Shown here: positions 8,893 through 30,642 of the stretch, piece after piece
Layout of the letters: each line of letters opens with the position of its first letter
How positions within the stretch are numbered: the first letter of the stretch is position 1
Source of the DNA: a virus
Lineage: Duplodnaviria; Heunggongvirae; Uroviricota; Caudoviricetes
Length of the DNA: 30,900 nucleotides
IMG/VR virus record: IMGVR_UViG_2617270950_000011
Reading direction: 5' to 3' (one strand)
Notes under the pieces: model-generated
Seen by the model: the letters and a program-made list of their open reading frames with translations, nothing else
The model's database searches: none
What the model was told of the DNA's origin: nothing
Position numbers and translations under genes: made by a program

Positions 8893-8900
8893 GCCTTACC

Positions 8901-10403: not shown

Positions 10404-10681
10404 CAGGACGTCCCCTTATCTGATGCTGCGGTTTTTTCAGCCACCGCCGCAGTTTTTTCTGCTACCGCTCCCGCTGGTTTTGCCGCCGCGCCGGTATTAG
10501 CAGTTGTGGCAGCCGGGGCAGGCTCCGCCGTTTTATCCACCACAATGACGTCGCCATCATTAAGACGGCGGCACCAGAACGGAGTGAAGGGTTTCTCTTC
10601 CCCGTCCTGAGAGAGCGGAGTCATCGTGTCGGGATCGCGGATCAGGCATCCCGGCGCAGGTTTAATAAAAATGGTTGTCAT
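10403..10681 (-). CDS. Hypothetical phage protein (Mu gp38-like position)
   Basis: 92-aa ORF with an Ala/Thr-rich C-terminus, ATGA-coupled to the sheath gene. Confidence 0.4.
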   Translation of the reverse strand: MTTIFIKPAPGCLIRDPDTMTPLSQDGEEKPFTPFWCRRLNDGDVIVVDKTAEPAPAATTANTGAAAKPAGAVAEKTAAVAEKTAASDKGTS

Positions 10682-10684
10682 CTG

Positions 10685-11248
10685 TTATTCCTCTGACAGT
10701 CCGGCGTTTTCACCGGCGGCAGTTGCACCAGGCAGACGGATGTGTGCCTTAAATTCCGGCGTGCCTTCCGGTTCGGTAAAGGTTTCGTAATGGCGCAGGA
10801 AATCATCCAGCGAGCTGATATCCGTCAGCGGGTCGATCATTTCCTCGCATGAGAAATACAGGGCGTACATCACGGCACCGCTGCCTGCCTGCGTTTCGGT
10901 GTAACCGTTGACCGCCTTTTCAAAGTAAAGCGGTGAGGTTTTTTCTGCTCTGAAGCCGTCCAGCACGGTAATCAGGCGGGCCACAATCTGATAAAGCCCG
11001 GGACGGCTGACCTCACGGCCATTGAGCATGTCGCCGATGACGTAGAACACCCAGTGACTGACCAGACGCCCACGGGTACGCCCTTCACCGGCACCCAGCC
11101 AGGCAACATAGATAGCCGGGGCGTTAATCAGCATGGTGCGCAGTACGCTGTCGCTCCAGTCGCCGGGATGTGTGTCAACAGACACCAGTTCATTCCCGAA
11201 ATACTCACGGATACGGGCGATGTACGCCTGCTCGGTTTCCGTAATCAT
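10685..11248 (-). CDS. Phage morphogenesis protein (Mu gp37-like, DUF1834-type)
   Basis: 187-aa ORF (MITETEQAYIARIREYFGNELVSVDTHPGDW...) upstream of the sheath; family assignment from memory. Confidence 0.45.
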   Translation of the reverse strand: MITETEQAYIARIREYFGNELVSVDTHPGDWSDSVLRTMLINAPAIYVAWLGAGEGRTRGRLVSHWVFYVIGDMLNGREVSRPGLYQIVARLITVLDGFRAEKTSPLYFEKAVNGYTETQAGSGAVMYALYFSCEEMIDPLTDISSLDDFLRHYETFTEPEGTPEFKAHIRLPGATAAGENAGLSEE

Positions 11249-11372
11249 ATAAAGCCCTTCTGGTTGCGCCCGAACACCGCCGCATCAGACTGCACCTGCG
11301 GTAAATCCCCGGATTCAGGGGCCGCACCGTCTGTATCCACGCCGACCGGCACGTTACCGTTCATGACATCTT

Positions 11373-12518
11373 TCAGCCAGGCCAGCGCCTCACGGTATCC
11401 GAGTAATACAGAAACGGTTTGCCATGATGGCGAATACCGTGCTGTATGGCACCGGCTACGGCGAAAACATTTTCAGCCAGGTCAAGGCTCCAGCCCACCA
11501 CAAAGCGCGTGCCACCGTCGATAACAAAGGTCACTTCCGGTGCGAATGGCCGCCCGTGAACCGGGTGCGCGCATTTCAGCTTCATGCCGTGACCGTCACC
11601 AATCCAGACATAATTCACCGGCATTTTTGACCAGTCGCGGCGCGTGAATCCCTCAAGCTGGCGGTATTCACTGCCGGTAACCCGTCCTTTTTGTTTCACC
11701 ACTTCCGGCAGTTTCTTCATTGCGCGGCGAATGGTGTCATAAGACGGCATGATATCGAGCATATAAGGCTCATCAGCGTGCCGGTGCTGCCATTCGGCAA
11801 CAAAATCCTCGTAAGCCTCGGTCATTGGTCGGCCGTTTGACTGGCGATACTGCGCCAGAAATTCGGGCAACCAGTTAATATCTTCGGCTTTTATTTCCTG
11901 GCGTTTACCTGGTGCCAGCAAAAGCAGGCGTTCAGCAGCGTTCTGTGCCTTATTAAAGGCCGCAATCCAGCGTTTCAGCGTGATTTCACTCAACACGCGA
12001 CTGTTTCCCTTTCTGGCGTTCGCTATCTCAACCATTGCCACAATGCGCTCATCCAGTTGCGAGTGTGACAGGCGGTCAACGATGAACCAGATAGCTTTAG
12101 CGCAGCTGAAACCGGGTTGTTGCGTGAATTTCAGCACCTCACTGACGATCGCAATGCGTGCGTCTGCCACCTGGCGCTGGTTTTCAGTCAGGGCATTGAG
12201 GCGTTCGACCATCAGTTGTGGTGATCCGCGATATGCCTCCACCGCATCAACCACGGCAGACGAGCGTCTGGCCTTTGTCACCACCGGAGCCGGTGATTCA
12301 TCGGCTTTTTGCGTCATCAGTTGCAGGGCATAACGTTCGCGTAATGCCTGCTGTGTCACTTCAGGTAAACAGTCAATGCTGTATTCAAAACCTTTAGCGC
12401 CTTTCTTGCGGCGTCTGCTGGTTTCGCTGGTTGCATACTTCCTGATTGAATAGCGAACGCCTTGCTCCGTTCCCGGCATCCCCGGTAATCCAACCAGTTC
12501 TTTGACTGAAGCAAACAT
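11373..12518 (-). pseudogene. Mu-type DDE transposase (MuA-like), C-terminally truncated after the second catalytic Asp
   Basis: 381 aa. N-terminus has the Mu winged-helix end-binding pattern (SVKELVGLPGMPGTEQGVRYSI...GAKGFEYSIDCLP); WIGDGHGMKL and ...YYSDTVRRWPG* match the first two DDE aspartate regions of MuA (recalled). The catalytic Glu and C-terminal domains are missing, and the next gene is gp37-like, not B. Confidence 0.75.
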
Positions 12519-12520
12519 AA

Positions 12521-12751
12521 TTACGCGACCTTACGAATGTAGCGGCTGGGCCAAATCTCCTCGGGCGGCACCCCCAGGCATTCCGCGATAATCCCCTCAT
12601 ACTTGGGAACATGGCGGTATACCGCGTTGTACAGATTGTTCTGACCCACGCCAGCTTTACGGGCCAGCGCCCTCATGCTTCCTTCTCTGGCTCTGACTTC
12701 CCCCAAAATTCTTTGAGGATGCCAATCAGGCTTAACTTCATTTCTCGCCAT
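12521..12751 (-). CDS. ner: Ner-like DNA-binding regulator
   Basis: 76 aa; ...WHPQRILGEVRAR...ALARKAGVGQNNLYNAV...PEEIWPSRYI matches the Mu Ner/Nlp pattern (recalled); sits immediately upstream of the transposase on the same strand. Confidence 0.75.
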   Translation of the reverse strand: MARNEVKPDWHPQRILGEVRAREGSMRALARKAGVGQNNLYNAVYRHVPKYEGIIAECLGVPPEEIWPSRYIRKVA

Positions 12752-12780
12752 GATTCATCTATCCTAAAAAGTTACGAAAT

Positions 12781-12804
12781 TTGATAACTAAACTTAGTTA
12801 TCAA
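12781..12804. promoter_or_regulatory. Operator-like 24-bp palindrome in the divergent ner/repressor control region
   Basis: TTGATAACTAA-AC-TTAGTTATCAA: 11-bp perfect inverted arms, with further TTGATA half-sites just upstream (~12779) and downstream (~12806); lies between the divergent Ner-like and repressor genes. Confidence 0.5.
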
Positions 12805-12935
12805 GTTTGATATAAGTATTGATCCACTTCTGCTTCATGTAAAGCAAAAAAACATCTTTCTTTTGTCTATTGTGGATCAATGGTTGCTGACAACACTAAA
12901 AGTTAATAATTTCAAATTGATAGGAAGAAAAGAAA

Positions 12936-13481
12936 ATGAACAAGCAAACAACAACATCTCTTTCTTTTCCTGGTGGTAGAAAAGAAAGCATTGCTGAGCG
13001 TCTGAAAAGGCTGATTGGCTCCCGCAGCGTCAGAGCTGCAGCAAGAGATTGGGGGCTTTCATTTTCAACACTAAACAATTATCTGTCTCGTGGCACTGAG
13101 CCATCCTTAAGTGTCGCCCTTCAGATTGCGTCTATCGAAGGAGTAAGTGTTGAGTGGCTATGTGGATTCAGTGATGCATCACAAGTGAATCGGTGCGAGA
13201 TCAAAGAAAATCAAGATGAAAGCAAGAAGATAATTATGACGATTATCAGCGCACTTGATGAAAAAGACTTAGAGCAGCTATCGAAAAATTTGGTTCTGAA
13301 TGGAGCCAAGTACTTAGCTCGGTTGTTAGAGCCTGAAAATCAAGATCTAATCCGCTTAGAAGGAAGGAAAAGAATAGCTGCATTACAGCTTGAAGGTATG
13401 TCTGACGAACGCGTCAGAGAGATTTTGGAAGAAACTGAGAGAAGTCGCAAATCTAACGCGGTAGAACCAAAAGCGGGTTAA
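12936..13481 (+). CDS. Phage repressor with CI-type N-terminal HTH (Phage_CI_repr-like)
   Basis: 181 aa; ...ERLKRLIGSRSVRAAARDWGLSFSTLNNYLSRGTEPSLSVALQIASIEGVSVEWLCG is a CI-type helix-turn-helix; divergent from ner across the operator palindrome. Confidence 0.7.
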   Translation: MNKQTTTSLSFPGGRKESIAERLKRLIGSRSVRAAARDWGLSFSTLNNYLSRGTEPSLSVALQIASIEGVSVEWLCGFSDASQVNRCEIKENQDESKKIIMTIISALDEKDLEQLSKNLVLNGAKYLARLLEPENQDLIRLEGRKRIAALQLEGMSDERVREILEETERSRKSNAVEPKAG

Positions 13482-13555
13482 TAGCATTAGCCCGCATTTT
13501 GCACTATATCGAGTATTTCGCATTGTTTGGAACGCCTTAAAAGACTAAAACCACA

Positions 13556-13711
13556 GTATCAAATGAGTTGCCGATTTTATAATAAATGACTAATTATTGC
13601 ACAATCGGTATCAAATAGACCTTATCCGCACATCTAGCCATCACCTGTTTTATTTCAGTATCTTACAGGTGATTTCACCTCCTTTCACTAAAACCCTTGT
13701 CGGTATCAAAT
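13556..13711 (+). repeat. Three direct copies of GTATCAAAT plus a 9-bp inverted repeat at the repressor/gene A junction
   Basis: GTATCAAAT at 13556-13564, 13608-13616 and 13703-13711; inverted repeat ATCACCTGT / ACAGGTGAT at 13640-13648 and 13665-13673; TTATCCGCA (DnaA-box-like) at 13622-13630. Function unknown. Confidence 0.4.
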
Positions 13712-15715
13712 GATTCACCTGGTTATATTAACGAGGCCGCCGCAGCATTCTCATGGAACAGCCCGAAAAAGGCTATTAACCCTTATCTGGACCCGGCGGA
13801 AGTTGCGCCGGTTTCTGCGCTTTCAAACCTGATCACTCTGTACGCTGCCGATAACGAGCAGGAACAACTGCGCCGCGAGGCACTGAGTGATCAGGTTTGG
13901 GAGCGTTATTTCTTTAATGAATCCCGTGATCCTGTCCAGCGCGAAATGGAGCAGGATAAGTTCATTAGCCGGGCAAAGTTGGCGCATGAGCAGCAGCGTT
14001 TTAACCCGGACATGGTCATTCTGGCAGACGTTAACGCCCAGCCTTCCCATATCAGCAGGCCGCTGATGCAACGTATTGAATACTTCAGCAGCCTTGGTAG
14101 GCCAAAGGCTTATTCCCGCTATTTACGTGAGACGATTAAGCCATGTCTGGAACGGCTGGAGCATGTACGCGACAGTCAGCTATCCACTTCTTTTCGCTTT
14201 ATGGCAAGCCATGAAGGGCTGGACGGCCTGCTGATTCTGCCTGAAATGAGTCAGGATCAGGTGAAACGCCTGTCCACCCTTGTTGCTGCGCATATGAGCA
14301 TGTGCCTTGATGCAGCTTGTGGCGATTTGTATGCCACCGATGACGTTAAGCCAGAAGAAATCCGCAAGACATGGGAAAAGGTGGCAGCAGAAACCCTGCG
14401 ACTGGATGTCATACCGCCTGCGTTTGAGCAACTCCGCCGGAAAAGAAACCGCCGTAAACCCGTGCCCTATGAACTCATTCCGGGTTCGCTGGCGCGTATG
14501 TTGTGCGCCGATTGGTGGTACCGGAAATTATGGAAGATGCGTTGCGAATGGCGGGAAGAGCAGTTGCGTGCTGTTTGCCTGGTCAGCAAAAAAGCATCTC
14601 CCTATGTCAGCTATGAAGCCATGATGCATAAACGTGAGCAGCGCCGTAAGTCGCTGGAGTTTTTCCGTTCTCATGAACTGGTGAACGAAGACGGCGACAC
14701 GCTGGACATGGAGGATGTGGTAAACGCCAGCAGCAGCAACCCTGCGCATCGCCGCAATGAGATGATGGCCTGTGTTAAAGGTCTGGAGCTTATCGCGGAA
14801 ATGCGCGGTGACTGCGCCGTTTTCTACACCATCACCTGTCCGTCACGTTTCCATTCCACGCTAAATAACGGCAGGCCCAACGCTGAATACGTTAATGCCT
14901 GGGCGTCTCTGCATCGTGTTCAGCAATTCCGCTTCTTTGGCATTCCGGGGCGTCAGGCTTACCGTGAACTGCGATTGCTGGCTGGTCAGGCGGCAAGGCA
15001 ACAGGGGGACAAAAAAGCAGGTGCGCCGGTACTGGATAACCCGCGCCTTGATGCAATCCTGGCTGCTGCTGATGCTGGTTGTTTTGCCACCTACATCATG
15101 AAGCAGGGCGGCGTACTGGTTCCCCGCAAATATCACCTCATCAGAACTGCTTATGAAATCAACGAAGAACCGACCGCATATGGCGATCACGGTATTCGTA
15201 TTTATGGCATCTGGTCACCCATTGCAGAGGGCAAGATCTGCACTCATGCGGTGAAGTGGAAAATGGTTCGTAAGGCCGTTGACGTTCAGGAGGCGGCAGC
15301 CGACCAGGGCGCTTGCGCCCCTTGGACTCGTGGCAATAACTGTCCCCTTGCTGAAAATTTGAACCAACAAGGGAAAGACAAATCAGCTGATGGGGATACC
15401 AGGACGGACATTACCTGCATGGATGACAAGGAGTTGCACGATTACCTGCACAGTATGAGCAAAAAAGAGCGCCGGGAACTGGCTGCAAGGTTACGCCTGG
15501 TGAAACCGAAACGGCGTAAAGACTACAAACAGCGAATTACAGACCATCAGCGACAGCAGCTCGTCTATGAACTGAAGTCCAGAGGATTTAATGGCAGCGA
15601 GAAAGAGGTCGATTTACTCCTTCGCGGCGGCAGTATTCCGTCAGGAGCAGGCCTGCGTATCTTCTATCGGAACCAGCGTTTGCAGGAAGATGATAAGTGG
15701 CGAAACCTGTATTAA
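13697..15715 (+). CDS. P2 gene A-family replication initiator homologue, apparently missing the HUH/Tyr catalytic core
   Basis: 672-aa ORF from a TTG start (true start uncertain). [23 protein letters not shown] and [27 protein letters not shown] resemble recalled P2 A segments, but no HxH or YxxxY motif occurs anywhere in the ORF. Confidence 0.7.
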
Positions 15716-15807
15716 TTACGCGGGTTAACAATTCGTGCTCTTAATAATACCAGGCATATCAGGCTGATGAACGTAAAAAAACGTTTTACATCAGTAAGAT
15801 TATTATA

Positions 15808-15827
15808 TACTGTAAATATAAACAGTG
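15808..15827 (+). promoter_or_regulatory. LexA (SOS) box
   Basis: TACTGTAAATATAAACAGTG fits CTGT-N8-ACAG with an AT-rich spacer; about 40 bp upstream of the small ORF and DinI-like gene; a second half-site (TGTATACAGTA) follows at ~15832. Confidence 0.7.
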
Positions 15828-15868
15828 GTTATGTATACAGTATTGCTTGTGGTGTCATAGGAGGAAAG

Positions 15869-16057
15869 ATGCAGGACTATTTTTTGGAGTCTTTGAAGCT
15901 CCAGCGCATTGATTTTTTTCTTAAGCTTGTAGCGGCTAGTGAGTGTAGTGATGAAGAGAAGGGGCTGGCTTTGCAGTGGGTTTCTGAACTGACAGATGAA
16001 CTCATGGCAAAAATCAGAACCCACGAATACAACCGCTCAATGGATGTCATCAGCTGA
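15869..16057 (+). CDS. Small SOS-controlled protein, possibly Tum-type antirepressor N-domain homologue
   Basis: 62 aa from the ATG at 15869, preceded by AGGAGG. Downstream of the LexA box and upstream of a DinI-like gene, the arrangement of the 186 tum locus; the function is inferred from context only. Confidence 0.4.
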   Translation: MQDYFLESLKLQRIDFFLKLVAASECSDEEKGLALQWVSELTDELMAKIRTHEYNRSMDVIS

Positions 16058-16067
16058 GGTGACTTTT

Positions 16068-16301
16068 ATGCGCATTGAAATAATGATCGATAAAGAGCAG
16101 AAGATTAGCCAGTCTACCCTAGACGCCCTTGAATCCGAGCTTTACCGCAATCTGCGCCCCCTATATCCAAAAACGGTAATTCGCATCCGCAAAGGTAGCT
16201 CTAACGGTGTGGAACTGACCGGACTGCAACTGGACGAAGAAAGAAAACAAGTGATGAAAATTATGCAGAAGGTGTGGGAAGACGACAGCTGGCTGCATTA
16301 A
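16068..16301 (+). CDS. DinI-family protein
   Basis: 77 aa: MRIEIMIDK...LDALESELYRNLRPLYP...KQVMKIMQKVWEDDSW aligns along its length with E. coli DinI (MRIEVTIAK...IDALAGELSRRIQYAFP...ISEILQETWESADDW, recalled); GAGGTG ribosome-binding site. Confidence 0.8.
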   Translation: MRIEIMIDKEQKISQSTLDALESELYRNLRPLYPKTVIRIRKGSSNGVELTGLQLDEERKQVMKIMQKVWEDDSWLH

Positions 16302-16309
16302 GAAACCTT

Positions 16310-16345
16310 GCCCCCAAGAGAATTTATTCTGATGGGGGCTAGTTT
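16310..16345 (+). terminator. Putative intrinsic terminator after the DinI-like gene
   Basis: GCCCCCA ... TGGGGGC stem with an inner AGAAT/ATTCT stem, followed by TAGTTTGGG. Confidence 0.45.
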
Positions 16346-16707
16346 GGGCAACGAGTGAAACGAGGCGTAAGGTGGGCGGCCATTTTGATAAGTGATTGTA
16401 CGCTTTGTGTTGTGAGTTCAACGGGTCGATGCAACGCTATCCTTAATCAAGGGGACGTTGCTCATACCCATCGATGCAATGAAAATCCATACTCATGGGG
16501 AAGACCAGAATGTCCCTGCCTTTTTCATTTTGTTCAGCACATGCACTATGGCCATTGCCTTCCCAAGCTAGCTATCGTAATCACTCAGCGTCAGTAAACT
16601 ACTGAAAAATTGTTTTACCTTGTATATCAATAATGCCAAATCATACCCAAAAAATCGAAAATAATTAGATCGACAGGCAGAAGGCAATGTGAATAATCTT
16701 AAAAACC

Positions 16708-16737
16708 TTGACTGCCAGTGAGGTTTGGTTCTATAAA
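16708..16737 (+). promoter_or_regulatory. Candidate sigma70 promoter for darT-darG
   Basis: TTGACT (16708-16713), 18-bp spacer, TATAAA (16732-16737); AGGA ribosome-binding site before the ATG at 16769. Confidence 0.45.
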
Positions 16738-16768
16738 TAGACTTACGAATTTGAAAGGATGAGTTGAA

Positions 16769-17350
16769 ATGAGCGAAAGGAAAAGAATTGAAGATCAGTA
16801 TCTTCTCTATCATTTAACATGTATGGATAATCTACCTAGTATTTTAGACACAGGATTAAGATCTCGTGCATCAGTAAAAGGTGAGTTTGTTGATGTGGCC
16901 GACGGTGAAATAATAACAGGTCGCGAAGCATTAAATTTGCAAACAATGGTTCCTTTTCATTTCTTTACTAAGAATCCATTTGATGGAAGAGTCCTGAAAG
17001 ATCATAAGGAAAAATCATTTTGTATTATTTCGGTTTGTCGGGCATTTGCCAAAGAAAATGGTTGGAAAGTTATCCCTAAACATCCATTATCCACCAGTTC
17101 TGTTATAGACCTCTTAGATTATGAACAAGGAATGGCCCAAATTGACTGGGAGCTTATGAATATAAGGGATTATAAAAATGCAGAATGCAAATCTGTATGT
17201 ATGGCTGAGTGTTTATCAAGTGTAACGGTCGAGCCGAAAAATTTCCATTGCATCTTTGTCAAAAATGATAACGAAAAAAAATATGTTGAAGGGTTGATAA
17301 AACAACAAGGATTAAGTATATTGATAACGATCAACACTTATATGTTCTAA
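16769..17350 (+). CDS. darT: DarT, DUF4433 ssDNA ADP-ribosyltransferase toxin
   Basis: 193 aa; N-terminal LLYHLTCMDNLPSIL matches the DarT YHITHIDNL signature; VPFHFF and a downstream AECLS (candidate catalytic Glu) motif; followed 4 nt later by a macrodomain gene. Confidence 0.8.
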   Translation: MSERKRIEDQYLLYHLTCMDNLPSILDTGLRSRASVKGEFVDVADGEIITGREALNLQTMVPFHFFTKNPFDGRVLKDHKEKSFCIISVCRAFAKENGWKVIPKHPLSTSSVIDLLDYEQGMAQIDWELMNIRDYKNAECKSVCMAECLSSVTVEPKNFHCIFVKNDNEKKYVEGLIKQQGLSILITINTYMF

Positions 17351-17354
17351 TTCT

Positions 17355-18326
17355 ATGATTAAGTATGCAAGCGGAAATCTTCTAAACTCTACATCGCAAG
17401 CTCTTGTGAATGCTGTAAACTGCCAAGGAGTCATGGGAAAGGGTATTGCTTTGGCTTTTAAAGAAACTTTTCCCTATAATTTCGAAGTTTATAAGAGAGC
17501 ATGCACCACTGGTACAATGAAAATTGGACAGGTTTTAATTGTAGAGGAAAAGGGAAAAATAATCGTAAACTTTCCCACTAAAGATAGTTGGAGAAAAAAA
17601 TCAACATATGATTTTATCTCGCAAGGCCTTGAATCTTTAGCAAAAATTATAGACGAAAAAAAAATTACATCAATATCAATACCACCTTTAGGCTGTGGTA
17701 ATGGGGGCCTCGATTGGAATAAGGTTGAGGCTCTTATTTTAAAAACTTTTCAAAATTTAGATAATGTTGATGTGGTAATTTATCCGCCTGCAACTAACAA
17801 TCAGCTTTCAAAAAATAAAAATGTTATTAATGCTAAGCATCTTTTGGTTCACTACGCCTATGGAAAATTAAAAGTTAAGCAAAAATATTCCCTTTATACA
17901 GTTTTTTATATTTGCGAATGTATTGAGAAAGCAAATCTTTTTTTATTCGATTTTAAACATGGTCGGCCATACTCTTCTGAGTTAGAAAATATTATGAAGG
18001 ATATAGCAAACCTTAAAGTTGAGTTGCAAGGAGATTTTGATGCTTTTATTGAAGATTATATTAATACTCATCAATCCAAAGAGTTACAAACCGAGTTTGG
18101 TAAACTAATCTCAACTTTAAATCCAAGTATAAGTTTTCTCAATGCTCTTAAAAATAAGATTGATTATACAGATAGCGTACATGTGATCACGAGAATTGCT
18201 AAAGAAAAAGATCATGGCTTGCATATTGACAATTTCAAAGAATATGAAAATATTGTGCAGCATTTAATTAAAAATGGATTGGTAATCGAAGATATTTTTA
18301 ACGAACTAAAAATAAAGGGAAGTTAG
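17355..18326 (+). CDS. darG: DarG, macrodomain antitoxin
   Basis: 323 aa; N-terminal ALVNAVNCQGVMGKGIALAFKETFP is a macrodomain signature; translationally coupled to darT (stop 17348-17350, ATG 17355). Confidence 0.8.
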   Translation: MIKYASGNLLNSTSQALVNAVNCQGVMGKGIALAFKETFPYNFEVYKRACTTGTMKIGQVLIVEEKGKIIVNFPTKDSWRKKSTYDFISQGLESLAKIIDEKKITSISIPPLGCGNGGLDWNKVEALILKTFQNLDNVDVVIYPPATNNQLSKNKNVINAKHLLVHYAYGKLKVKQKYSLYTVFYICECIEKANLFLFDFKHGRPYSSELENIMKDIANLKVELQGDFDAFIEDYINTHQSKELQTEFGKLISTLNPSISFLNALKNKIDYTDSVHVITRIAKEKDHGLHIDNFKEYENIVQHLIKNGLVIEDIFNELKIKGS

Positions 18327-18999
18327 TAGCGCTATTTTCAATTTTTTTGCTGAAATTGCGCATGCACACTCTTACGCATTATAGATGCGGCGTTAATCCC
18401 GCCAGGAGTGTTGTTTAATAAATTGAACTATTTCTGCATTGAAGGATCAACTTACGCATTCGCTGACAACGCAGGCACTCTCCTGGCTAAGCAGAAATTC
18501 AGAGTAACCAACTGGCACTTTTACAACAATTTTCTTATCAGTTGCGGCTCCATGACTTTCTGGTGGGATAACAAAGCAATTAAGGCGTGGTATTGTAAGT
18601 ATCCCGCATAATCATGCTAGTAACATTTGTCCCCCATGTAACCTAATTAAGGCAACTTCCGCTCTTCGCTCACAGTGAACCTCCATGTTTGTAAACCCGT
18701 ATATTTCGTTTTTCAAGTGGTCATTCAGATACGGATTTTCACTTCTCTTGGCTGTGCATGTCTATGCCGCATGAATCCGCATGATCGTTTGAGGATCGTT
18801 TTTGCTGAGGCCCCCCAGAACTGGCGGGCTTTTGCTTATGTCATGCAGGTGCATGAAAACCACTGCATAAAGCGGGCAGGCGTGGCGGGGATACGAGCGC
18901 GCGCTAACTCATAAATCTTAGATTATTAGTGGATTTATCTCATTGAAATGTGCACTATTCCCAGCATTGAGTTGTACCAGATGTCTTTATGGAGGGACT

Positions 19000-20766
19000 G
19001 TGGCTTTTGTAACTGATATTCGGCTTGAAGATAATGCTATTGCTGCACCTGCGACAGCACAGGTTATGGCTCAGAGGCTAGGATCTGTATTACGTAAGAG
19101 ATATGAAGAATTCATCCATAAAAGAGAGTGTGCACCAGGCCAAGCAGACTATGATGTAAAAATGGCTAGCAGGGCTTTAGCTGCATTCACTATGTATCAG
19201 TTAGGATGTGTGGATGATAAGTATGCAGGGGAGTCTGTATGTGATAGTAGTGAAGATGGTGGTATAGATGGAATAGCAATCAACCATAACGAAAAAATCG
19301 TTGTTGTTGTTCAATCAAAATTTCACCAATCGGGAAACGGCACTTGGACAAGAGCCGATTTTATGTGTTTTAAGGATGCTTGTGAGAAGCTACAAAGTGA
19401 AAGATACGAATTATTTGATTCCATATTGCAAAATAAAAGCGGGGAAATAAGTGCGGCTTTAAGTAGTTTTGAATACAAGTTCATCTTTGCGATGGCGCAT
19501 ACAGGTAAAAAAGGTGCTGCAGAGGAAATATTAAATGATATGCGGGAATGGCAATATCAATTAAACGCTGCAGCTTTTACACCTGAGGATGAGCCTAAAG
19601 AGAACTGGGGATTTCAGGTTCATTTAATATCCTCTGAAGATATGATGCATTGGTTACAGAATGGCTCTCGAAATCAAATTGATCTTAACAGGGTTGAAAT
19701 TGAGCGTTTTGGATTTTTGAATGAACCATATCAAGCTTTTTACGGGGCTATTAGTGGTGATCAAGTTGCAGAATGGTGGGAAGAGCATGGTGCTCGATTA
19801 TTTACAAAAAACATAAGGAATATGCTTGGTAAAACAGAAGTGAATGAGGAAATAAAAAAGACAGCTATAGATAATCCTGATATGTTTTGGTTTTATAATA
19901 ATGGGATTACTGTACTGGTTAAGGAGGTTGTTCCTCATAGACGAAACGCAGCTCCTAATATAGAGAGAGGGATTTTTGATTTTCGTGATGTAAGTGTCAT
20001 TAATGGTGCACAAACAGTCAGTAGTATTGGCGCATGTAAAGATGCGCTTGGTGAAAACATATATAGACTCAAAGTGCCAGCTAGATTCATTGTTATAGAT
20101 GATGATACTGATAATTTAACTGCAAATGCGATTACAAAAGCTAACAATTTCCAAAATAGAGTATTGGGAAGAGATTTTGCGTCGCAGCAGGCAGATCAAC
20201 ATAGATTGGCAAGGGAGTTAGTGCTTGAAGGATATCAATATCAGTTACTAAGAACAGATGAAGATCATTCACAGACAAATACGAAAGTCATTGACTTGGA
20301 TGAGGCGCTCAATGCACTCGCATGTTTAAGTAAAAATAATACGGTTGTATCGACACTAAAATCAAATCGCGGTAGGTTTTTTGAAAATTTTGAAGGCTCT
20401 CTATATAAAACTATTTTCAATCCAAGATTAAGTGGTTTAAAACTTATCAATACTGTTCTACATTTTAGAGTTATAGATAAGTTGATCGGTAAAACATTAC
20501 TATCAGTAGATAAAACTACCCATAGTCGCAAGCATTTAATTATTACGCATGGTAATAGATACTATGCGTCTGTGCTATTGAGCAACGTTTCTGGGATACA
20601 TAATAGCTCAGAAATTCTTGTTCCAGATGAAAAAAATCTTTCCGAAGAATTAAGTGCATTAATTCAACGTGCTGAAGAGTACATTGAAGATAATTACCCG
20701 AATGCCTATCCGGCAAGATTTTTTGCAAATCCAACGAAAATACAAGAGTTATACGATAATGTTTAA
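19000..20766 (+). CDS. Uncharacterised 58x-aa to 607-aa protein, tentatively AIPR-family with an N-terminal PD-(D/E)xK-like motif; candidate defence gene
   Basis: Maximal ORF 18943..20766 starts at TTG; the GTG at 19000 follows GGAGGG and the ATG at 19066 is an alternative. Motifs seen: DGGIDGIAINHNEKIVVVVQSKF, FWFYNNGITVLV, VINGAQTVSSIG. No Walker A, so not P2 Old. AT-rich. Confidence 0.5.
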   Translation: MAFVTDIRLEDNAIAAPATAQVMAQRLGSVLRKRYEEFIHKRECAPGQADYDVKMASRALAAFTMYQLGCVDDKYAGESVCDSSEDGGIDGIAINHNEKIVVVVQSKFHQSGNGTWTRADFMCFKDACEKLQSERYELFDSILQNKSGEISAALSSFEYKFIFAMAHTGKKGAAEEILNDMREWQYQLNAAAFTPEDEPKENWGFQVHLISSEDMMHWLQNGSRNQIDLNRVEIERFGFLNEPYQAFYGAISGDQVAEWWEEHGARLFTKNIRNMLGKTEVNEEIKKTAIDNPDMFWFYNNGITVLVKEVVPHRRNAAPNIERGIFDFRDVSVINGAQTVSSIGACKDALGENIYRLKVPARFIVIDDDTDNLTANAITKANNFQNRVLGRDFASQQADQHRLARELVLEGYQYQLLRTDEDHSQTNTKVIDLDEALNALACLSKNNTVVSTLKSNRGRFFENFEGSLYKTIFNPRLSGLKLINTVLHFRVIDKLIGKTLLSVDKTTHSRKHLIITHGNRYYASVLLSNVSGIHNSSEILVPDEKNLSEELSALIQRAEEYIEDNYPNAYPARFFANPTKIQELYDNV

Positions 20767-20770
20767 ACTA

Positions 20771-20794
20771 AAGGGAGGTTGCCTCCCTTTTTTT
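20771..20794 (+). terminator. Intrinsic terminator after the 607-aa gene (hairpin plus T-run)
   Basis: AAGGGAGG-ttg-CCTCCCTT followed by a run of T; the reverse strand also ends in a shorter T-rich stretch (possibly bidirectional). Confidence 0.6.
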
Positions 20795-20796
20795 AA

Positions 20797-21321
20797 TTAG
20801 AAATGGTATTCTTGGAATTCAATAACACCTTCTTTTATGAAATTGTTTATTTCTTGTAATCTTTTTTGCAATGGCAATAATTCATTACGTACAAATACTT
20901 TACTCGCCTTCTCTACATCTCCAAAGCCCCCAACATTATTAGGCATTATCCCCATCATTTGCGGCGGCACACGGTGTGCCGCCATCATGTCGTCCCGGCT
21001 CACGTTCTTGATATTTAGAAACTCATCCTTCGCCGCGACTTCTGACAACGGGATAATCTGAAGCCCGTCCTTTTTGCCGTTAGGAGAGTACATAAACAGG
21101 TTGCGGAAGTTGCCTGGCCCTTTGGCGCTTTTCATTGCGTTGCGGAGGTTGTTCACATCTTCTTGGTTCTGCGCGGCATCGGTCATGTACATGATGAAGC
21201 CTGCATGACTACCGTTAATGTAATACTTGCGGCGGAACAGCGTGGCGGACTCGTTGAGCAGGGCCGACGGAATGGCAGAAAGATAACCGGGCAGGCCGTA
21301 GACCTCCTGGTTGATGTCCGG
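20797..21321 (-). pseudogene. Portal protein (P2 gpQ-like) C-terminal fragment
   Basis: Frame open from 21321 down to the stop at 20797; ...AHRVPPQMMGIMPNNVGGFGDVEKASKVFVRNELLPLQKRLQE resembles portal C-termini (recalled). The N-terminal portion is absent. Confidence 0.5.
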
Positions 21322-22244
21322 TTATCGGCTTTGTTGCGCCCACGGTTGAATAGCGCACCGGACCAGAACGGATAAGCACTGTGTGTCAGGCTGGATGGCG
21401 TGGAAAAATAGGTTTGTCGCCATTTCTTGTGAATAGCCATACCGGAAGCCACTTTGCGCAGCTCCTGGAATTTCGGTATCCAGAAATATTCATCCAGATA
21501 CAGGTTGCCGTGATAACTCTGGGCAGTGCGGGCATTGGTGCCGAGGAAGTAAAGCGTGGCCCCGTTAGGAAGCACCATCGGATCGCCTTTCAACTCCACC
21601 TCCACTTCTTTGGCGAAGTCGATGATGTACTGCTTAAAGACGTGGGCCTGTGCCTTGCTGGCGGAAAGGAAAATCTGGTTACGTCCGGTCAGCAGGGCGT
21701 CAATCAGGGCTTCACGGGCAAAGTAAAAGGTCGCGCCGATCTGGCGTGACTTCAGCAGGTTGCGGATGCGGTTGGTTTTTCCGGCTTCCCACCAGTGGCG
21801 CTGGTAGTTGAACATGGAGGAATGGAAGATTTCTTCCAGCTTCTCAATCTGCTCATCGGTGAAAACATTCTTTTCCGGCTGACGGCGTGGGCCTTTGTTG
21901 CGGTTGGCGACGTTAGGGTTTAAGTCGGATTCGTTGCCGCCATTGTTAAACTTGCCGATCCGCGCGTGGCGCTCAGACTGGCGCGCCAGCAGGTCAATCT
22001 CTTTGAAATCTTTCCCTTCTTTGTGCTCCTTCATGATGAGCTGGCAGTAGCGTGCGGCGGTGGTGAGCTGCATCTGATCCAGCGGCCCATAGTCACCCCA
22101 CTTGTCGCGTTTTTTCCAGCTGTGAACGGTTGCAACTTTCTCGCCCAGCATTTCAGCAATGCGGGCTACGCGGTATCCCTGAAAGTACAGCAGCATGGCC
22201 TGCCGACGGGGATCGAGATCTGCGGGTGTCAGTGTGGTGTTCAT
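21183..22244 (-). pseudogene. Terminase large subunit (P2 gpP-like) N-terminal ATPase fragment running out of frame into the portal fragment
   Basis: Walker A-like [12 protein letters not shown] and Walker B-like [10 protein letters not shown]; credible sequence ends near ...[11 protein letters not shown] (~21350), after which the frame reads low-complexity junk to the stop at 21183. The nuclease half is missing. Confidence 0.7.
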
Positions 22245-22290
22245 GGCACAAACCTACAGCCTTGAATGAAGGCTTTCCCCGCCTGCGGTT

Positions 22291-22308
22291 TGTGTGGTTG
22301 TCTGGACA
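22291..22308. promoter_or_regulatory. TGT-N12-ACA dyad (Ogr-type late promoter element) in the gpP upstream region
   Basis: TGTGTGGTTGTCTGGACA; the P2 late-promoter dyad is normally centred near -55. It lies about 50 bp from the gpP start and may be the PP or PO element. Confidence 0.4.
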
Positions 22309-22632
22309 GACGGCATTGGTAATACATCTGGTGTCATTCCAGGCAAAACCATTACGGAACGACAGGCAGCGGAAGGGCTGATCTCCAACGTGCTGCGTGT
22401 GGAGCGGGCGCTGGAAAGGTGTGTGAAGCAACAGCCGCCGCAGAAAGTGTATGACGCGGTGGTGTCATTTGCCTTCAACGTGGGGACAGGCAATGCCTGC
22501 AGCTCCACGCTGGTGAAATTGCTCAATCAGCGGCGCTGGGCGGATGCGTGCCGACAGTTGCCGCGCTGGGTTTATGTGAAAGGTGTTTTTAATCAGGGGC
22601 TGGATACTGGAGCTGAAGGTGTATGTGGATGA
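22294..22632 (+). pseudogene. T4-type (GH24) phage lysozyme fragment, truncated at both ends
   Basis: VSFAFNVGTGNACSSTLVKLLNQRRWADACRQLPRWVYVKG parallels the RrrD-type lysozyme core ([41 protein letters not shown], recalled). The N-terminal catalytic region is missing and the C-terminus reads into the fibre fragment. Confidence 0.65.
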
Positions 22633-23578
22633 CCTGATGGCAAAACACCTTGCCGCACAGGACCCACATTCACAGTATGCACCCAAAGAAAGTCCGACGT
22701 TTACCGGAACCCCCAAAGCGCCAACGCCAGCGGCGGGGAATAATACCACGCAGGTTGCGACCACTGCGTTTGTTCAGGCGGCACTGACGGCCCTTATTAA
22801 TGGTGCGCCAGCCACGCTGGACACGCTGAAAGAAATAGCCGCAGCCATTAACAATGATCCGAATTTCAGTACCACCATTAACAATGTGCTGGCACTAAAA
22901 GCACCGTTGTCGAGTCCGGCACTCACCGGAACGCCAACAGCCCCCACGGCGGCGCAGTCGGTCAACAATACACAGATTGCCACTACAGCTTTTGTGAAAT
23001 CGGCAATTGCAGCAATGGTGGGGTCTGCACCTGCGGCACTGGATACACTGAACGAACTGGCGGCGGCGCTGGGGAATGACCCGAACTTTGCCACGACAAT
23101 GCTTAATGCGCTGGCAGGCAAACAACCGCTGGATAATACGCTGACTAATTTGAGTGGAAAGGATATAGAAGGAATTCTTACTTATCTTGGTTTAGGGCAT
23201 TTGGGAAATGCGGCAGGTAGAAATGTTGGTAATGCTAATAGTTATGAAATCCCTGACATGAGCTATTTTCAGCTAACAGGAAAAGGAAGCGATAATTTGT
23301 TGGTTAAAGGTCCGAATGGTTTAATTATACAAATATTTCGAAGAAATCTTCCTAATAGTACAACTATTGGTATTCCACAACAGCTTCCTATTACATATCC
23401 AACGCCATTCCCTAACGGAGTATGGGGTGTGTTTGTCACAAAAATGACATATGCACAAGTCGTTACGTCGTGCGAAAGTATATATAATGATGGGTTTACT
23501 GCTGTAACTTGTTTGACATCAGGAACCAGCAGTGATTCAAAAGTTTCAGGCGCTGTATTTATTGCATTTGGATATTAA
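22583..23578 (+). CDS. Tail fibre protein, C-terminal portion (N-terminally truncated)
   Basis: VYVDDLMAKHLAAQDPH collar-like motif, then tail-fibre repeat units (TGTPKAPTPAAGNNTTQVATTAFVQAAL..., TGTPTAPTAAQSVNNTQIATTAFVKSAI...ALDTLNELAAALGNDPNF) and a variable AT-rich tip. About 185 residues of an H-type fibre are missing upstream. Confidence 0.65.
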   Translation: MFLIRGWILELKVYVDDLMAKHLAAQDPHSQYAPKESPTFTGTPKAPTPAAGNNTTQVATTAFVQAALTALINGAPATLDTLKEIAAAINNDPNFSTTINNVLALKAPLSSPALTGTPTAPTAAQSVNNTQIATTAFVKSAIAAMVGSAPAALDTLNELAAALGNDPNFATTMLNALAGKQPLDNTLTNLSGKDIEGILTYLGLGHLGNAAGRNVGNANSYEIPDMSYFQLTGKGSDNLLVKGPNGLIIQIFRRNLPNSTTIGIPQQLPITYPTPFPNGVWGVFVTKMTYAQVVTSCESIYNDGFTAVTCLTSGTSSDSKVSGAVFIAFGY

Positions 23579-23580
23579 AT

Positions 23581-24057
23581 ATGAAAAGTTGTGATGATTA
23601 TCAACATGATTCTTCTTATGATTTCATATGGGATAAGGTAAATGCCAGATTTATGGCGTATATATTAAAAAATGAATATGAAAGAAATGGAATGTGGCCT
23701 AAGGAAGGGGTGGATATTTCAAATGAGACTGCTTGTGAATTCATGAAACAACCTCCGGAAGGAAAAATTCTTGGGGCAGATGATAATGGTATGCCTGCAT
23801 GGATTGATACGCCACCACTCACATATACAGAGTTAGTGGCTAAAGCAAAAACTGAAAAACAAGCACGTATAATAGAAGCTGTAAATTATATAAATAACAA
23901 ACAATGGCAGGGGAAAGCATTGCTTGGGAGACTGAATGCTACTGAACTGGAAATGTATAACATATGGCTTGATTATATTGAAGCATTAGAGGCTATTGAT
24001 CCATCAAAAGCCTCTGATACAGCCTTTCCGACTAAGCCATTTAACGATTCAGTCTGA
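23581..24057 (+). CDS. Tail fibre assembly protein (Tfa / gpG-like)
   Basis: 158 aa with the typical C-terminus ...QWQGKALLGRLNATELEMYNIWLDYIEALEAIDPSKA; immediately follows the fibre. Confidence 0.75.
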   Translation: MKSCDDYQHDSSYDFIWDKVNARFMAYILKNEYERNGMWPKEGVDISNETACEFMKQPPEGKILGADDNGMPAWIDTPPLTYTELVAKAKTEKQARIIEAVNYINNKQWQGKALLGRLNATELEMYNIWLDYIEALEAIDPSKASDTAFPTKPFNDSV

Positions 24058-25072
24058 GAATTGGATTAACAAACAACCGATCAATAATCAAGCTTAAACC
24101 AAGGCTGATAAAAAAAATGACTAAAGACAGGGATGTTGTTTTTAGTAAAATGTTGTCCACGATAAAAGGAATATTGAAATATTTCTCTAAGACTCTGAAA
24201 ACACAAACATGAATTAAATAAATTCCGTATGTCAGAGGTGCTATTTTTTCAATGATTAAAATTATTTTTTTATTATTGATGTTTATTTTTGTAAATGCAA
24301 TTACTATCAAGGAACACATTAACAACATATTAATCCCTGAGTCAAATGGGTATATGTTAAAGTTATATTTGTTAACGCTAAAATAAACAAACATCACATG
24401 TAGTAAAAATATAAAAGGGATGCTATATACAATATAATGTGTTTTAATGTCAACTCTTTTTAATAATCCGCCGACAACAAAATATAAAACCCATGTATCT
24501 ATGCTCTGTAATGGGATTAAATGATGGTAGTATTGAGAGGATTGGCTTAGAGAGTATGAGTATAATGAATAATAAAAAATGAAAGCCAAAACTATAATCA
24601 CCTTAAGGCTGTCGGCTTGTGGGATTTTATTGACTATGTATTGAATTGCTGGAGCGGTTAAATACAAACCGATAAAGGCATAAACAAACCAGAAATGCAC
24701 AGAGAGTGAAATAGTGCTTTTAGATATTAATGAGAAATATTCAAGTAAATTCGATGACGTTCCATTATTCCAGCTAATAATATAGTAATGTGCTAATGAA
24801 TATATTACAAAAGGGATAATAATGGCGGGGATTCTTTTTTTATAAAACAAAAGTGGAGTGCTATTTTGTCTGTTGAGTAGGTAGTATCCACTTAACATAA
24901 AGAATATTGGTAAACCAATGCGTACAATTGATTGTGCAAAAAGAGTTTGTATTTGTATACTTTCTGTTTGGTTACTGGTAACAGTATAAGCATAGTCGGG
25001 CGTGACATGAATTCCTATTACAAAAATACAACAAATAATACGTAACAGGTCTAAAGAAATATCTCTTTTCAT
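24041..25072 (-). CDS. Acyltransferase-3 family integral membrane protein (O-antigen/surface glycan acyltransferase-like)
   Basis: 343 aa, polytopic and very AT-rich; N-terminal MKRDISLDLLRIICCIFVIGIHV fits the acyltransferase_3 start (R-x-D-x-x-R ... H). Opposite strand to flanking late genes, in the P2 Z/fun position; its 3' end overlaps tfa by 17 bp. Confidence 0.7.
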   Translation of the reverse strand: MKRDISLDLLRIICCIFVIGIHVTPDYAYTVTSNQTESIQIQTLFAQSIVRIGLPIFFMLSGYYLLNRQNSTPLLFYKKRIPAIIIPFVIYSLAHYYIISWNNGTSSNLLEYFSLISKSTISLSVHFWFVYAFIGLYLTAPAIQYIVNKIPQADSLKVIIVLAFIFYYSLYSYSLSQSSQYYHHLIPLQSIDTWVLYFVVGGLLKRVDIKTHYIVYSIPFIFLLHVMFVYFSVNKYNFNIYPFDSGINMLLMCSLIVIAFTKININNKKIILIIEKIAPLTYGIYLIHVCVFRVLEKYFNIPFIVDNILLKTTSLSLVIFFISLGLSLIIDRLFVNPILRLNR

Positions 25073-25133
25073 ATAGTATTCAATCTGATTTAAATGGATG
25101 ACAGATGCGCAATAGTAAAATAGATTTGCGTAT

Positions 25134-25166
25134 AATAATCAATACATATTGAGATATATTGATTAT
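25134..25166. promoter_or_regulatory. 10-bp perfect inverted repeat upstream of the acyltransferase gene
   Basis: ATAATCAATA ... TATTGATTAT separated by 13 bp, 60-95 bp upstream of the acyltransferase ATG; candidate operator. Confidence 0.3.
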
Positions 25167-25192
25167 TTTATGAAAAGCCCTCATGGCGCTGT

Positions 25193-25210
25193 TGTGCCAT
25201 TTCCCATACA
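25193..25210 (+). promoter_or_regulatory. Ogr-dependent late promoter element (PF-like) upstream of sheath gene FI
   Basis: TGT-GCCATTTCCCAT-ACA (TGT-N12-ACA), centred about 84 bp upstream of the FI start codon, consistent with a -55 dyad and a short leader. Confidence 0.5.
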
Positions 25211-25285
25211 ATCCCCATCGCGTGCACCCTGCGCGTATCAACCAGAACATAGGCAGACCCCCTCTACAACCGGAGAGACTGCCTT

Positions 25286-26458
25286 ATGGCTCAGGATTAC
25301 CACCACGGAGTGCGCGTTGTTGAAGTCAACGAAGGCACCCGATCCATTACCACGGTGAGCACCGCCATCGTGGGCATGGTCTGCACGGGCGATGATGCCG
25401 ATGCAAAAATGTTTCCTCTTAATAAACCCGTGCTGATCACTGATGTGCTGACTGCCAGCGGTAAAGCGGGTGAGTCCGGCACGCTGGCCCGTTCGCTGGA
25501 TGCCATCGCTGACCAGGCAAAACCCGTGACCGTTGTTGTGCGTGTGCCGCAGGGTGAAACGGAAGAAGAAACCACAACCAATATCATTGGCGCAGTGACC
25601 GCCGAGGGTAAAAAAACAGGTATGAAAGCCCTGTTATCTGCCCAGTCACAGCTCGGCGTTAAACCGCGCATTCTCGGCGTGCCGGGTCACGATAACAAAG
25701 CCGTTGCGACTGAGCTGCTGAGTGTGGCGCAAAGCCTGCGCGGGTTTGCTTACCTGTCAGCGTATGGCTGCAAGACAGTGCAGGAGGCGATCACTTACCG
25801 TGAAAACTTCAGTCAGCGCGAAGGGATGCTGATCTGGCCTGACTTTACTGGCTGGGACACGGTGCTGAATGCCGAAGCAACGGCATATGCCACCGCCCGT
25901 GCGCTCGGTCTGCGCGCCAAAATTGATGAGCAGACCGGGTGGCACAAGAGCCTGTCCAACGTAGGCGTGAACGGTGTCACCGGAATTTCTGCTGATGTGT
26001 TCTGGGATCTGCAGGACCCGGCAACCGATGCGGGACTGCTTAACCAGAACGACGTCACCACGCTTATCCGCAAAGACGGTTTCCGCTTCTGGGGTTCCCG
26101 CTGCCTGAGTGATGACCCGCTCTTTGCCTTCGAAAACTACACCCGCACGGCGCAGGTACTGATGGACACGATGGCAGAAGCGCATATGTGGGCGGTGGAC
26201 AAACCGCTGAACCCGTCGCTGGCCCGCGACATTATCGAAGGTATTCGCGCCAAAATGCGCAGCCTGGTCAGTCAGGGCTATCTCATTGGTGGTGATTGCT
26301 GGCTGGACGAGTCGGTGAACGATAAAGACACGCTGAAAGCCGGAAAACTCACCATCGATTACGACTACACGCCAGTACCGCCACTTGAAAACCTGATGCT
26401 GCGTCAGCGCATCACCGATCAGTACCTGGTGAATTTCTCCAGCCAGGTAAGCGCGTAA
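25286..26458 (+). CDS. Contractile tail sheath protein (P2 gpFI-like)
   Basis: 390 aa (P2 FI is about this size); in the FI position ahead of the tube gene; GGAGAG ribosome-binding site. Confidence 0.75.
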
Positions 26459-26467
26459 GGGGGCAAC

Positions 26468-27736: not shown

Positions 27737-27826
27737 TTCTTCGCAATGGAGAACTTTTAAGTTTGCAAAATGGGATAATGCGGTATCATTATTGTGAATT
27801 TAGCAAAAATGGGGAGAACTCGAAAA

Positions 27827-28045: not shown

Positions 28046-28125
28046 CGCTGCCGCCATTTTGTCGCCATCGTTAAAAAACAGTTCTTCTAACATCATGATT
28101 TTAAACGGTATAAATTTCAGGCAAC

Positions 28126-28168
28126 AAAAAACCCATCAACCTTGAACCGAAATGGCGGGGTTGATGGG
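28126..28168 (-). terminator. Intrinsic terminator downstream of ybjL
   Basis: 10-bp perfect stem (CCCATCAACC / GGTTGATGGG, 28132-28141 and 28159-28168) followed on the minus strand by TTTTTT (28131-28126). Confidence 0.5.
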
Positions 28169-30633: not shown

Positions 30634-30642
30634 GTCAGACGA

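Follow-up and report, generated by a model that had tools for sequence, protein, structure and literature searches.

The window analysed here, a stretch of 30,900 nucleotides, is Escherichia coli chromosome with a decayed P2-like prophage. The gene order in the part of interest is A (replication endonuclease), a hypothetical gene, a DinI-like gene, DarT, the macro-domain DarG, a spacer, an AIPR gene and, on the opposite strand, a remnant of the portal gene. The interval between the replication gene A and the portal gene Q constitutes a hotspot; in P2, the hotspot between gpA and gpQ has been described as 'adjacent to the cos site' (PMC9122126). The prophage is defective, and most of the portal and terminase genes have been lost. 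Terminase P is reduced to a 353-aa N-terminal fragment (21183-22244) that abuts a 131-aa C-terminal portal ORF (20797-21192), and gene A is broken at its 5' end, where homology breaks off at 13728, at Mu-like prophage genes. In E423, a strain nearly identical here, the portal is flagged by RefSeq as partial. The window does not represent strain E423 itself, as the match to that strain is confined to window positions 13728-21374 and 22605-30900.

What lies between the two defence systems? The darG gene ends with the TAG stop codon at 18324-18326, and the next credible start is that of the AIPR gene, a GTG at 19000 preceded by GGAGGG at 18991-18996. The spacer is 18327-18999. RefSeq places the start of the AIPR protein (WP_021542068.1, 588 aa, from strain E423, near-identical) at the same GTG. 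The initial annotation described about 0.6 kb of apparently non-coding DNA between darG and a 607-aa gene, and the spacer is indeed without a credible gene. The 607-aa ORF, however, is the AIPR frame extended upstream to a TTG at 18943, so the gene length and the spacer end (18999) given there make use of two different starts. The two short ORFs that were judged implausible lie exactly at 18408-18611 (67 aa) and 18675-18914 (79 aa), and a Pfam search with both of these and one sub-ORF produced zero significant matches; a match to DUF5448 (E = 0.17) was discarded as noise. The base composition is also unlike that of the flanking genes, with a G+C content of 44.0% in the spacer vs 34.2% in darT, 31.2% in darG and 36.7% in the AIPR gene. 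The main source of this contrast is a sub-block at 18754-18905, which has 56.6% G+C.

The spacer is thus real, non-coding and compositionally distinct. It is not a single feature; it consists of at least five juxtaposed modules of differing evolutionary history:

18327-18406, plus strand: 3' flank of darG, where the DarTG cassette tails off, with no recognisable feature (98.5-100% identity between loci)
18407-18611, plus strand: IS903-family (IS5 family) relic, with the left inverted repeat and 37 transposase codons followed by a stop (blastn, blastx, RefSeq)
18596-18753, no strand assigned: junction DNA (recurrence in other loci)
18754-18905, plus strand: cos region (packaging signal), P2-like, of the Fels-2/SEN8 type, assigned by homology to P2-family cos regions
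18906-18999, plus strand: 5' leader of the AIPR gene, with the ribosome-binding site GGAGGG and the GTG start; promoter presumed (co-occurrence with AIPR)

The DarTG side of the spacer

Segment 18327-18406 accompanies DarTG in all of the prophage loci that have DarTG on the left, and the darG 3' flank down to about position 18380 is found also with DarTG homologues in other contexts. It is followed by the truncated left end of an IS903-family element. Here 18407-18424 matches the IS903 left inverted repeat (IRL) at 13 of 18 positions, and blastn aligns 18411-18593 with positions 5-188 of the IS903 of phage P7 (136/184 identical, 74%, E = 4e-29); further IS903 matches are to P7 and HK022. At the peptide level, blastx from 18483 shows 23 of 37 residues identical (62%) to transposase residues 1-37 (E = 7e-14), and transposase similarity past residue 37 is absent from the spacer. 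RefSeq records the corresponding region, window 18483-18590, as a pseudogene, 'IS5/IS1182 family transposase, incomplete'. The first short ORF is accounted for by the relic.

Compared with IS903, the relic holds only about 18% of the element and has neither a recognisable right end nor a recognisable target duplication. A repeat search and the comparison with IS903 found no IS right end or flanking direct repeats in the spacer, only short two-copy matches, and by Pfam and blastx the relic contains neither the DDE domain nor a complete transposase gene. Thus, 18407-18611 is an IS903-family relic and not a functional IS. No closer parent IS was found in the plasmid collection, where thousands of IS903 and IS903B copies all stand at about 73-74% identity. 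The proposal in the initial annotation that the spacer may hold the scar of a previously resident system is in part supported, though in another form, that of a truncated transposable element.

Of interest are DarTG homologues of 88-90% identity that reside in other contexts, namely three plasmid-like loci and one P2-type tail-fibre/acyltransferase locus. The plasmid-like locus that was checked (L050) carries resolvase, UmuDC-like and colicin-M-like genes. The tail-fibre/acyltransferase locus resembles the Z/fun hotspot. The homologues in these other contexts have pieces of the same IS relic behind darG, and in all four loci there is in addition an extra insert behind darG that looks like an IS3-type orfA. 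Since IS debris is present in the other-context loci too, it is part of the DarTG module and not of the P2 backbone. IS903-like debris, accompanied in the relatives by IS3-like debris, is seen with DarTG wherever DarTG was found, and may be a trace of the first mobilisation of the cassette.

To the right of the relic, 18596-18683 recurs 3' of DarTG homologues in unrelated contexts. Segment 18650-18753 recurs, with about 89% identity, to the left of cos in P2-like prophages of the E2348/69 and W types, whose left cargo is an unrelated minus-strand 111-aa gene. The notion of a scar also holds for this part, as the same DNA is common to prophages that have a different cargo gene left of cos. Segment 18612-18753 would appear to be junction or leftover DNA.

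A P2-like cos site

The conserved and G+C-rich part of the spacer, 18754-18905, is by homology the cos site of a P2-like prophage. Segment 18840-18908 aligns over the circularised ends of phage 186 (52/65, E = 1e-12) and over those of P2 (48/62, E = 7e-10). The annotated 19-nt cohesive ends of the two phages, in each case bases 1-19 of the record (GGCGTGGCGGGGAAAGCAT in 186 and GGCGAGGCGGGGAAAGCAC in P2), fall on the following feature:

18879-18897, plus strand: putative 19-nt cohesive end GGCGTGGCGGGGATACGAG, aligned with the 186, P2 and SEN8 termini

Bases 1-19 of the Salmonella phage SEN8 are the identical 19-mer, annotated as 'putative cos site', and the last base of the SEN8 record is the equivalent of window position 18878. 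Fels-2, Klebsiella Peduoviridae and all of the Fels-2-type E. coli prophages that were inspected also have this 19-mer. With the annotation of the 186 record as a guide, the top strand is predicted to be nicked by the terminase before 18879 and the bottom strand after 18897. Cleavage and packaging at the Fels-2/SEN8-type 19-mer are putative.

An alignment of 19 sequences was made that comprises P2, 186, P4, Fels-2, SEN8, ENT90, pro483, Yersinia and Klebsiella phages and E. coli prophages, and the whole 150-bp block is homologous across it. The shared elements are, from left to right, three (T/C)GCATG boxes, a GC-rich stem-loop, TCATGCAnnTGCAT(G/T)AAAAC, AAAGCGGGC(A/G), the 19-mer and (C/T)GCGCGC. 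The core, which extends from TGCAT(G/T)AAAAC through AAAGCGGGC(A/G) and the 19-mer to (C/T)GCGCGC, is kept in all 19 sequences, P2, 186 and P4 included. A 55-bp core common to the cos regions of P2-family phages is attributed to Ziermann and Calendar (1990), as cited in PMC5694545 and PMC9122126; it corresponds to the part of the alignment that is invariant around the cut.

The position of the block in the prophage genome is consistent with this assignment. In every locus inspected (at least 10 other loci) it is situated between the portal gene and the group formed by the A and DinI-like genes and cargo. A nucleotide search of E. coli genomes, proposed in the initial annotation, did reveal homology at prophage hotspots; the conserved core is cos, the main content of the spacer, which had gone unnoticed, and not an RNA gene. 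With 18740-18925 as the query, the cos block is found at a coverage of at least 80% in 1248 of 5426 complete E. coli genomes, and also in 91 phage records. In nearly all cases the homology runs from about 18754 to about 18905, with sharp edges in unrelated loci.

How does this cos compare with those already described? In P2, 186 and P4 it occupies the same place between the right-end accessory genes and Q, has its cohesive end at the same position and is flanked by the same AAAGCGGGC(A/G) and (C/T)GCGCGC sequences, with TGCAT(G/T)AAAAC and GCATG boxes upstream. The window 19-mer differs, however, from that of P2 and P4 at 5 of 19 positions and from that of 186 at 4, and in the comparison with these three phages an GATCGTTTGAGGATCG repeat and a T-run after the hairpin stand out as restricted to the Fels-2-type clade. 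Q follows cos within about 190 bp in P2 and 186, whereas in the window the 1.8-kb AIPR gene is found between cos and Q. The resemblance is closer to Fels-2, SEN8, the Klebsiella Peduoviridae and the majority E. coli P2-like type, which have the identical 19-mer and a 150-bp block of 88-95% identity. Loci of the Fels-2/SEN8 type carry cargo on both sides of cos, and only this flanking cargo differs from that of the window; the window copy is set apart from the type by a C.C mismatch in the hairpin and by its location in a defective prophage.

The lambda cos consists of cosQ, cosN and cosB, and staggered nicks at this site leave a 12-nt overhang. As an analogy for mechanism, lambda cos is likewise a staggered-nick site with short repeats arrayed on one side of it, to which the small terminase subunit presumably binds. 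The lambda and P2-like cos regions have no sequence similarity, and the overhang is 12 nt in the one and 19 nt in the other.

Some phage records annotate a 'hypothetical protein' over the cos block, and both short ORFs are open in the window. Might one or both be real small-protein genes? This is hardly credible. The first ORF consists of 37 IS903-type transposase residues, then of unrelated residues and a stop, and its transposase part bears the RefSeq pseudogene flag mentioned above. The second (18675-18914) has its first 26 codons outside of the conserved block, and among the 19 homologous cos regions 14 have stop codons in its frame. The lack of a significant Pfam match for either ORF also speaks against a coding function.

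Motifs within the cos block

Two motifs are prominent to the left of the predicted cut:

18755-18785, plus strand: three (T/C)GCATG boxes, 10-13 bp apart; candidate terminase recognition repeats (conservation)
18810-18833, plus strand: GC-rich stem-loop followed by TTTT, intrinsic-terminator-like for rightward transcripts (covariation)

Additional GCATG copies are found at 18843 (inverted), 18851 and 18865. The GCAT cores are near-invariant in all 19 aligned cos regions, including those of P2, 186 and P4, and GCAT/ATGC occurs seven times in the 125 bp left of the cut vs 0.98 times in shuffled sequences (P = 1.5e-4). Conservation reaches about 125 bp to the left of the cut and only 8 bp to the right; the terminase recognition elements are therefore likely to be on the left, which represents the right end of the mature genome. 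The pattern of conservation suggests the GCATG boxes as the candidate elements.

In the stem-loop, 18810-18817 pairs with 18822-18829 around a GAAC loop. The stem shows covariation in 18 cos regions: 87.5% of the cells are paired, 6 of the 8 pairs are changed on both sides, and the score was reached by none of 500 shuffles, with slid controls at 30-45% paired. In the window, LR-46 and L048 the centre of the stem has a C.C mismatch (18814/18825), and a terminator scan did not call the 18810-18833 hairpin in the window, where the stem carries this mismatch. The T-run after the stem is present in the Fels-2-type clade and in ENT90. The hairpin with its T-run has the form of a terminator, at which transcripts running rightward from the left cargo would probably end before cos is reached. 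The T-run is not found, however, in 186, P4 and pro483, so 'terminator' may not be the role that the hairpin has in common in these phages, and a shared structural role in cos may be considered. A minus-strand terminator call at 18875-18860, a 5-bp stem inside the cos core, was set aside, as one such site was found vs 0.7 expected by chance.

A hairpin that covaries raises again the prospect of a structured non-coding RNA, as entertained in the initial annotation. Such an RNA might be a small RNA, might resemble an antitoxin for DarTG or might, like a riboswitch, form the leader of the AIPR gene. The spacer is long, non-coding, compositionally distinct and in part highly conserved, all of which would be in keeping with an RNA gene, but the one covarying structure is the 8-bp hairpin in cos, and the minimum free energy of the whole spacer is indistinguishable from that of shuffled sequences on both strands (z = -0.24 and -0.06). 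The covariance-model scan that was proposed found nothing credible in 18200-19100. No Rfam 15 family reaches the gathering score in the spacer, and in the whole window only RybB does, at 28123-28201. Under relaxed settings, 18200-19100 gave three chance-level matches, at 18200-18366 and outside of the conserved block; the best, from a miRNA model, has E = 0.48 and scores 19 bits vs a gathering score of 60. In 18327-18406, Rfam gave no more than a chance-level miRNA match. In addition, the conserved block stays put while both of the neighbouring cassettes change. It is homologous to the cos of P2, 186 and P4, phages in which the flanking genes are different, and its conservation is thereby fully explained. 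A regulatory RNA is thus a very improbable reading of the spacer.

Returning to cos, how might the block function? The terminase is composed of gpM and gpP (PMC13100340). In an intact relative this enzyme, with gpM as the small and gpP as the large subunit, would recognise the cos block, the recognition elements likely being the repeated GCATG boxes found only left of the cut. Two nicks 19 nt apart, at the equivalents of 18879-18897, would then generate the cohesive ends of virion DNA, and the embedded hairpin and T-run would probably end rightward transcription of the left cargo ahead of cos. The window copy cannot serve its own phage, as the portal and terminase genes are mostly lost and gene A is broken. 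It is probably a relic; at most, a superinfecting relative could cut it.

The AIPR leader

The last module of the spacer, 18906-18999, accompanies the AIPR gene in ARL09/232 and in L027-L029, and is missing from the remaining DarTG-left loci, in which homology goes no further than about 18905. This co-occurrence, and the requirement of the AIPR gene for a promoter if read-through from darTG does not serve it, bring up the idea that the spacer is mainly a promoter/operator region of the AIPR gene and is conserved for that reason. The idea is an unlikely one. Linkage to AIPR is limited to the last 94 bp of the spacer, and the conserved block itself adjoins many unrelated right genes (GmrSD, DUF4145, TIGR02391, DprA, HNH and STAS-like), or the portal gene directly. 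A scan for sigma-70 sites (-35/-10 with 16-18 nt spacing) found no plus-strand site in 18906-18999, the nearest plus-strand matches being at 18226 and 19007. The initial annotation suggested that the spacer could hold the promoter of this gene, and 18906-18999 may do so; transcription may be by way of a weak or non-consensus promoter, or by read-through from darTG.

The preferred interpretation, in which confidence is high, is that of a composite: an IS903-family relic, a P2-like cos site and an AIPR leader, inside the anti-phage hotspot of a defective P2-like prophage. Its parts are ordinary, already-known biology. The value of the finding is mainly one of annotation, in that seemingly mysterious DNA between two defence systems turns out to be a packaging site and IS debris; the spacer need not be pursued, therefore, as a new RNA or a new system.

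Two cargo bays and a junction at the cos core

How did DarTG and the AIPR gene come to lie on the two sides of one cos? A megablast search with the spacer against the 5426 complete E. coli genomes produced three nested patterns. Bases 1-580 of the query are matched in only 10 genomes, always behind DarTG. Bases 328-584 are matched in more than 1200 records. Bases 428-673 are found in front of the AIPR gene, e.g. in ARL09/232, which has a DUF2971 gene to the left in place of DarTG. Nine loci, i.e. the window, LR-46 and seven IMG/VR contigs, share the module of DarTG, IS relic and cos at 98.5-100% identity, and these nine carry nine mutually unrelated right cargos, with homology to the window ending at 18905-18938. 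Conversely, loci with AIPR on the right show at least three different left contexts.

The identity breakpoints define one further feature:

18869-18904, no strand assigned: crossover interval between the DarTG-side and the AIPR-side modules (identity breakpoints)

The window is identical to LR-46 and L048 through 18904, where homology ends. In comparison with the AIPR-right loci ARL09/232 and L027, the window shows 17 differences in 18754-18868 and only 6 over the 1.9 kb that follow. Identity with the DarTG-left loci through 18904, together with AIPR-type similarity from 18869, places the joint of the two halves within 18869-18904, the interval that holds the 19-mer. The window locus is a recombinant, and a crossover within the invariant cos core brought its left and right bays together. 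Such a join calls for no more than ordinary homologous recombination in the one sequence of the region that does not vary.

Most loci sampled have cargo on both sides of cos. To the right of cos, ahead of the portal gene, the cargo is as follows:

E. coli W: GmrSD
LF82: DUF4145
CFT073: TIGR02391-family protein
E2348/69: DprA-like
LR-46: hypothetical protein and STAS-like protein
SEN8: hypothetical protein and HNH endonuclease

P2, 186 and some E. coli prophages have no cargo between cos and Q. The cosL-Q interval has already been proposed as a site of foreign-gene acquisition in P2-like phages (PMC5694545). The cos site divides the hotspot into two bays. The left one contains DarTG here and corresponds to the tin/old position in P2; the right one extends from cos to Q and contains AIPR here. 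The published 'gpA-gpQ hotspot' is thus, for most of the E. coli P2-like prophages in this sample, physically two bays split by cos, and 'gene arrangements' that are scored over the whole gpA-gpQ interval mix two independently exchanged cassettes.

A broader proposal, possible but held only tentatively, is that the cos block acts as a fixed anchor, which splits the hotspot into two independently assorting bays whose cassettes are exchanged by crossovers at or inside the cos core. Double-strand breaks at lambda cos stimulate recombination of lambda; by analogy, and as a more speculative extension, cutting by terminase at the P2-like cos might stimulate the exchange of cassettes. The cos core as a crossover anchor between two defence bays is a lead that merits follow-up at the population scale.

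Could the block be instead a dedicated recombination site, similar to an integron attC, at which a recombinase inserts defence cassettes? Cassette boundaries recur at both edges of the block, one crossover maps to its core, and a covarying hairpin is part of it. Ordinary homologous recombination is, however, expected to leave boundaries just there, where the one conserved sequence of a variable region begins and ends. The block is homologous to the experimentally defined cos of P2, 186 and P4 and sits at phage genome ends, and no recombinase gene is tied to the hotspot in the loci inspected. A dedicated site thus has a very low probability.

A promoter scan detected a minus-strand promoter-like site with a -35 sequence at 18764-18759 and a -10 sequence at 18740-18735. 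The implied start, at about 18728, lies about 150 bp to the left of cos; in the P2 record the old-tin mRNA starts are at 33424/33426 and cosR is at 33575, a similar distance from cos. By analogy of position with P2, the minus-strand site could be the orphaned promoter of a leftward cargo gene that has been displaced.

Motifs in and beside the cos block

Two motifs stand out at the cos block (18754-18905):

18764-18735, minus strand, promoter-like site (TAGACA, 18-nt spacer, GAAAAT)
18783-18801, direct repeat GATCGTTT...GATCGTTT, inside the cos block

The promoter-like site is directed left: transcription from it would enter the IS relic and run antisense to darG. What might it represent? The old-tin promoter of P2 is found about 150 bp from cos, and the site in the window has the same spacing; by this analogy, it may be an orphan left by a displaced cargo gene. 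Within the direct repeat are two Dam (GATC) sites with a spacing of 11 bp, and conservation of this repeat is restricted to the Fels-2-type clade (cos regions like those of Fels-2 and SEN8). In the intact form of the prophage in E. coli strain E423, a DNA adenine methylase gene is present upstream of gene A; it is missing from the window because the window diverges from E423 left of 13728.

DarTG homologues and insertion-sequence debris

DarTG homologues (88-90% identity) are found away from the cos-left bay, the part of the hotspot left of cos, at four loci (own coordinates):

L045 and L050, about 5030-5450
L047, 970-1400
L046, 4909-5700

The setting is plasmid-like in three of these (L045, L047 and L050), with neighbours checked in L050 only, where they are resolvase, UmuDC-like and colicin-M-like genes. 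The L046 pair is at a P2 Z/fun-like site, downstream of tail-fibre assembly and acyltransferase genes. IS903-like relic fragments, as in the window, are found 3' of darG in all four loci, and an extra insert there looks, by its sequence, like an IS3-type orfA. Transposable elements have been described as nearly missing from these hotspots (PMC13586616), and the IS903-like and orfA-like debris behind the DarTG homologues is at odds with this.

As to darG in the window, RefSeq starts the macro-domain protein at 17433 (297 aa), and the initial annotation chose the maximal open reading frame (ATG 17355, 323 aa), with the darT stop 4 bp upstream; the two candidate starts differ by 17355-17432.

Rearrangements of the prophage

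At 13728, P2 gene A is joined by its 5' end to a defective Mu-like prophage, which fills 1-13727; the near-identical strain E423 has a normal P2 early region in its place. The Mu-like prophage includes:

genes for tail sheath, tape measure, DNA-circulation and baseplate gp44/gp47/gp48-like proteins
11373-12518, MuA-like N-terminal fragment, 381 aa
12936-13481, HTH repressor-like open reading frame

The window and E423 also differ over 21375-22604 (region of interest also 20797-22244), and therefore represent one degraded prophage in two deletion states. The window retains an N-terminal terminase P fragment (353 aa), fused beside the C-terminal portal remnant, but in E423 a tail-protein-I remnant comes after the portal remnant.

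Other features to the right

20769-20793, perfect hairpin AAAGGGAGG-TTG-CCTCCCTTT, with T- and A-runs on its flanks
24041-25072, minus strand, acyltransferase gene
28123-28201, minus strand, RybB sRNA gene (Rfam RF00110, 105 bits)

AIPR (stop 20766) and portal (stop 20797) are convergent genes separated by a 30-bp gap; the hairpin is located in this gap and looks like a bidirectional terminator, the counterpart of P2 tQ. The acyltransferase gene, flanked by tail-fibre assembly and tail-sheath genes, occupies the second P2 hotspot (Z/fun position). The RybB gene is in the chromosomal flank, immediately beyond the ogr end of the prophage.
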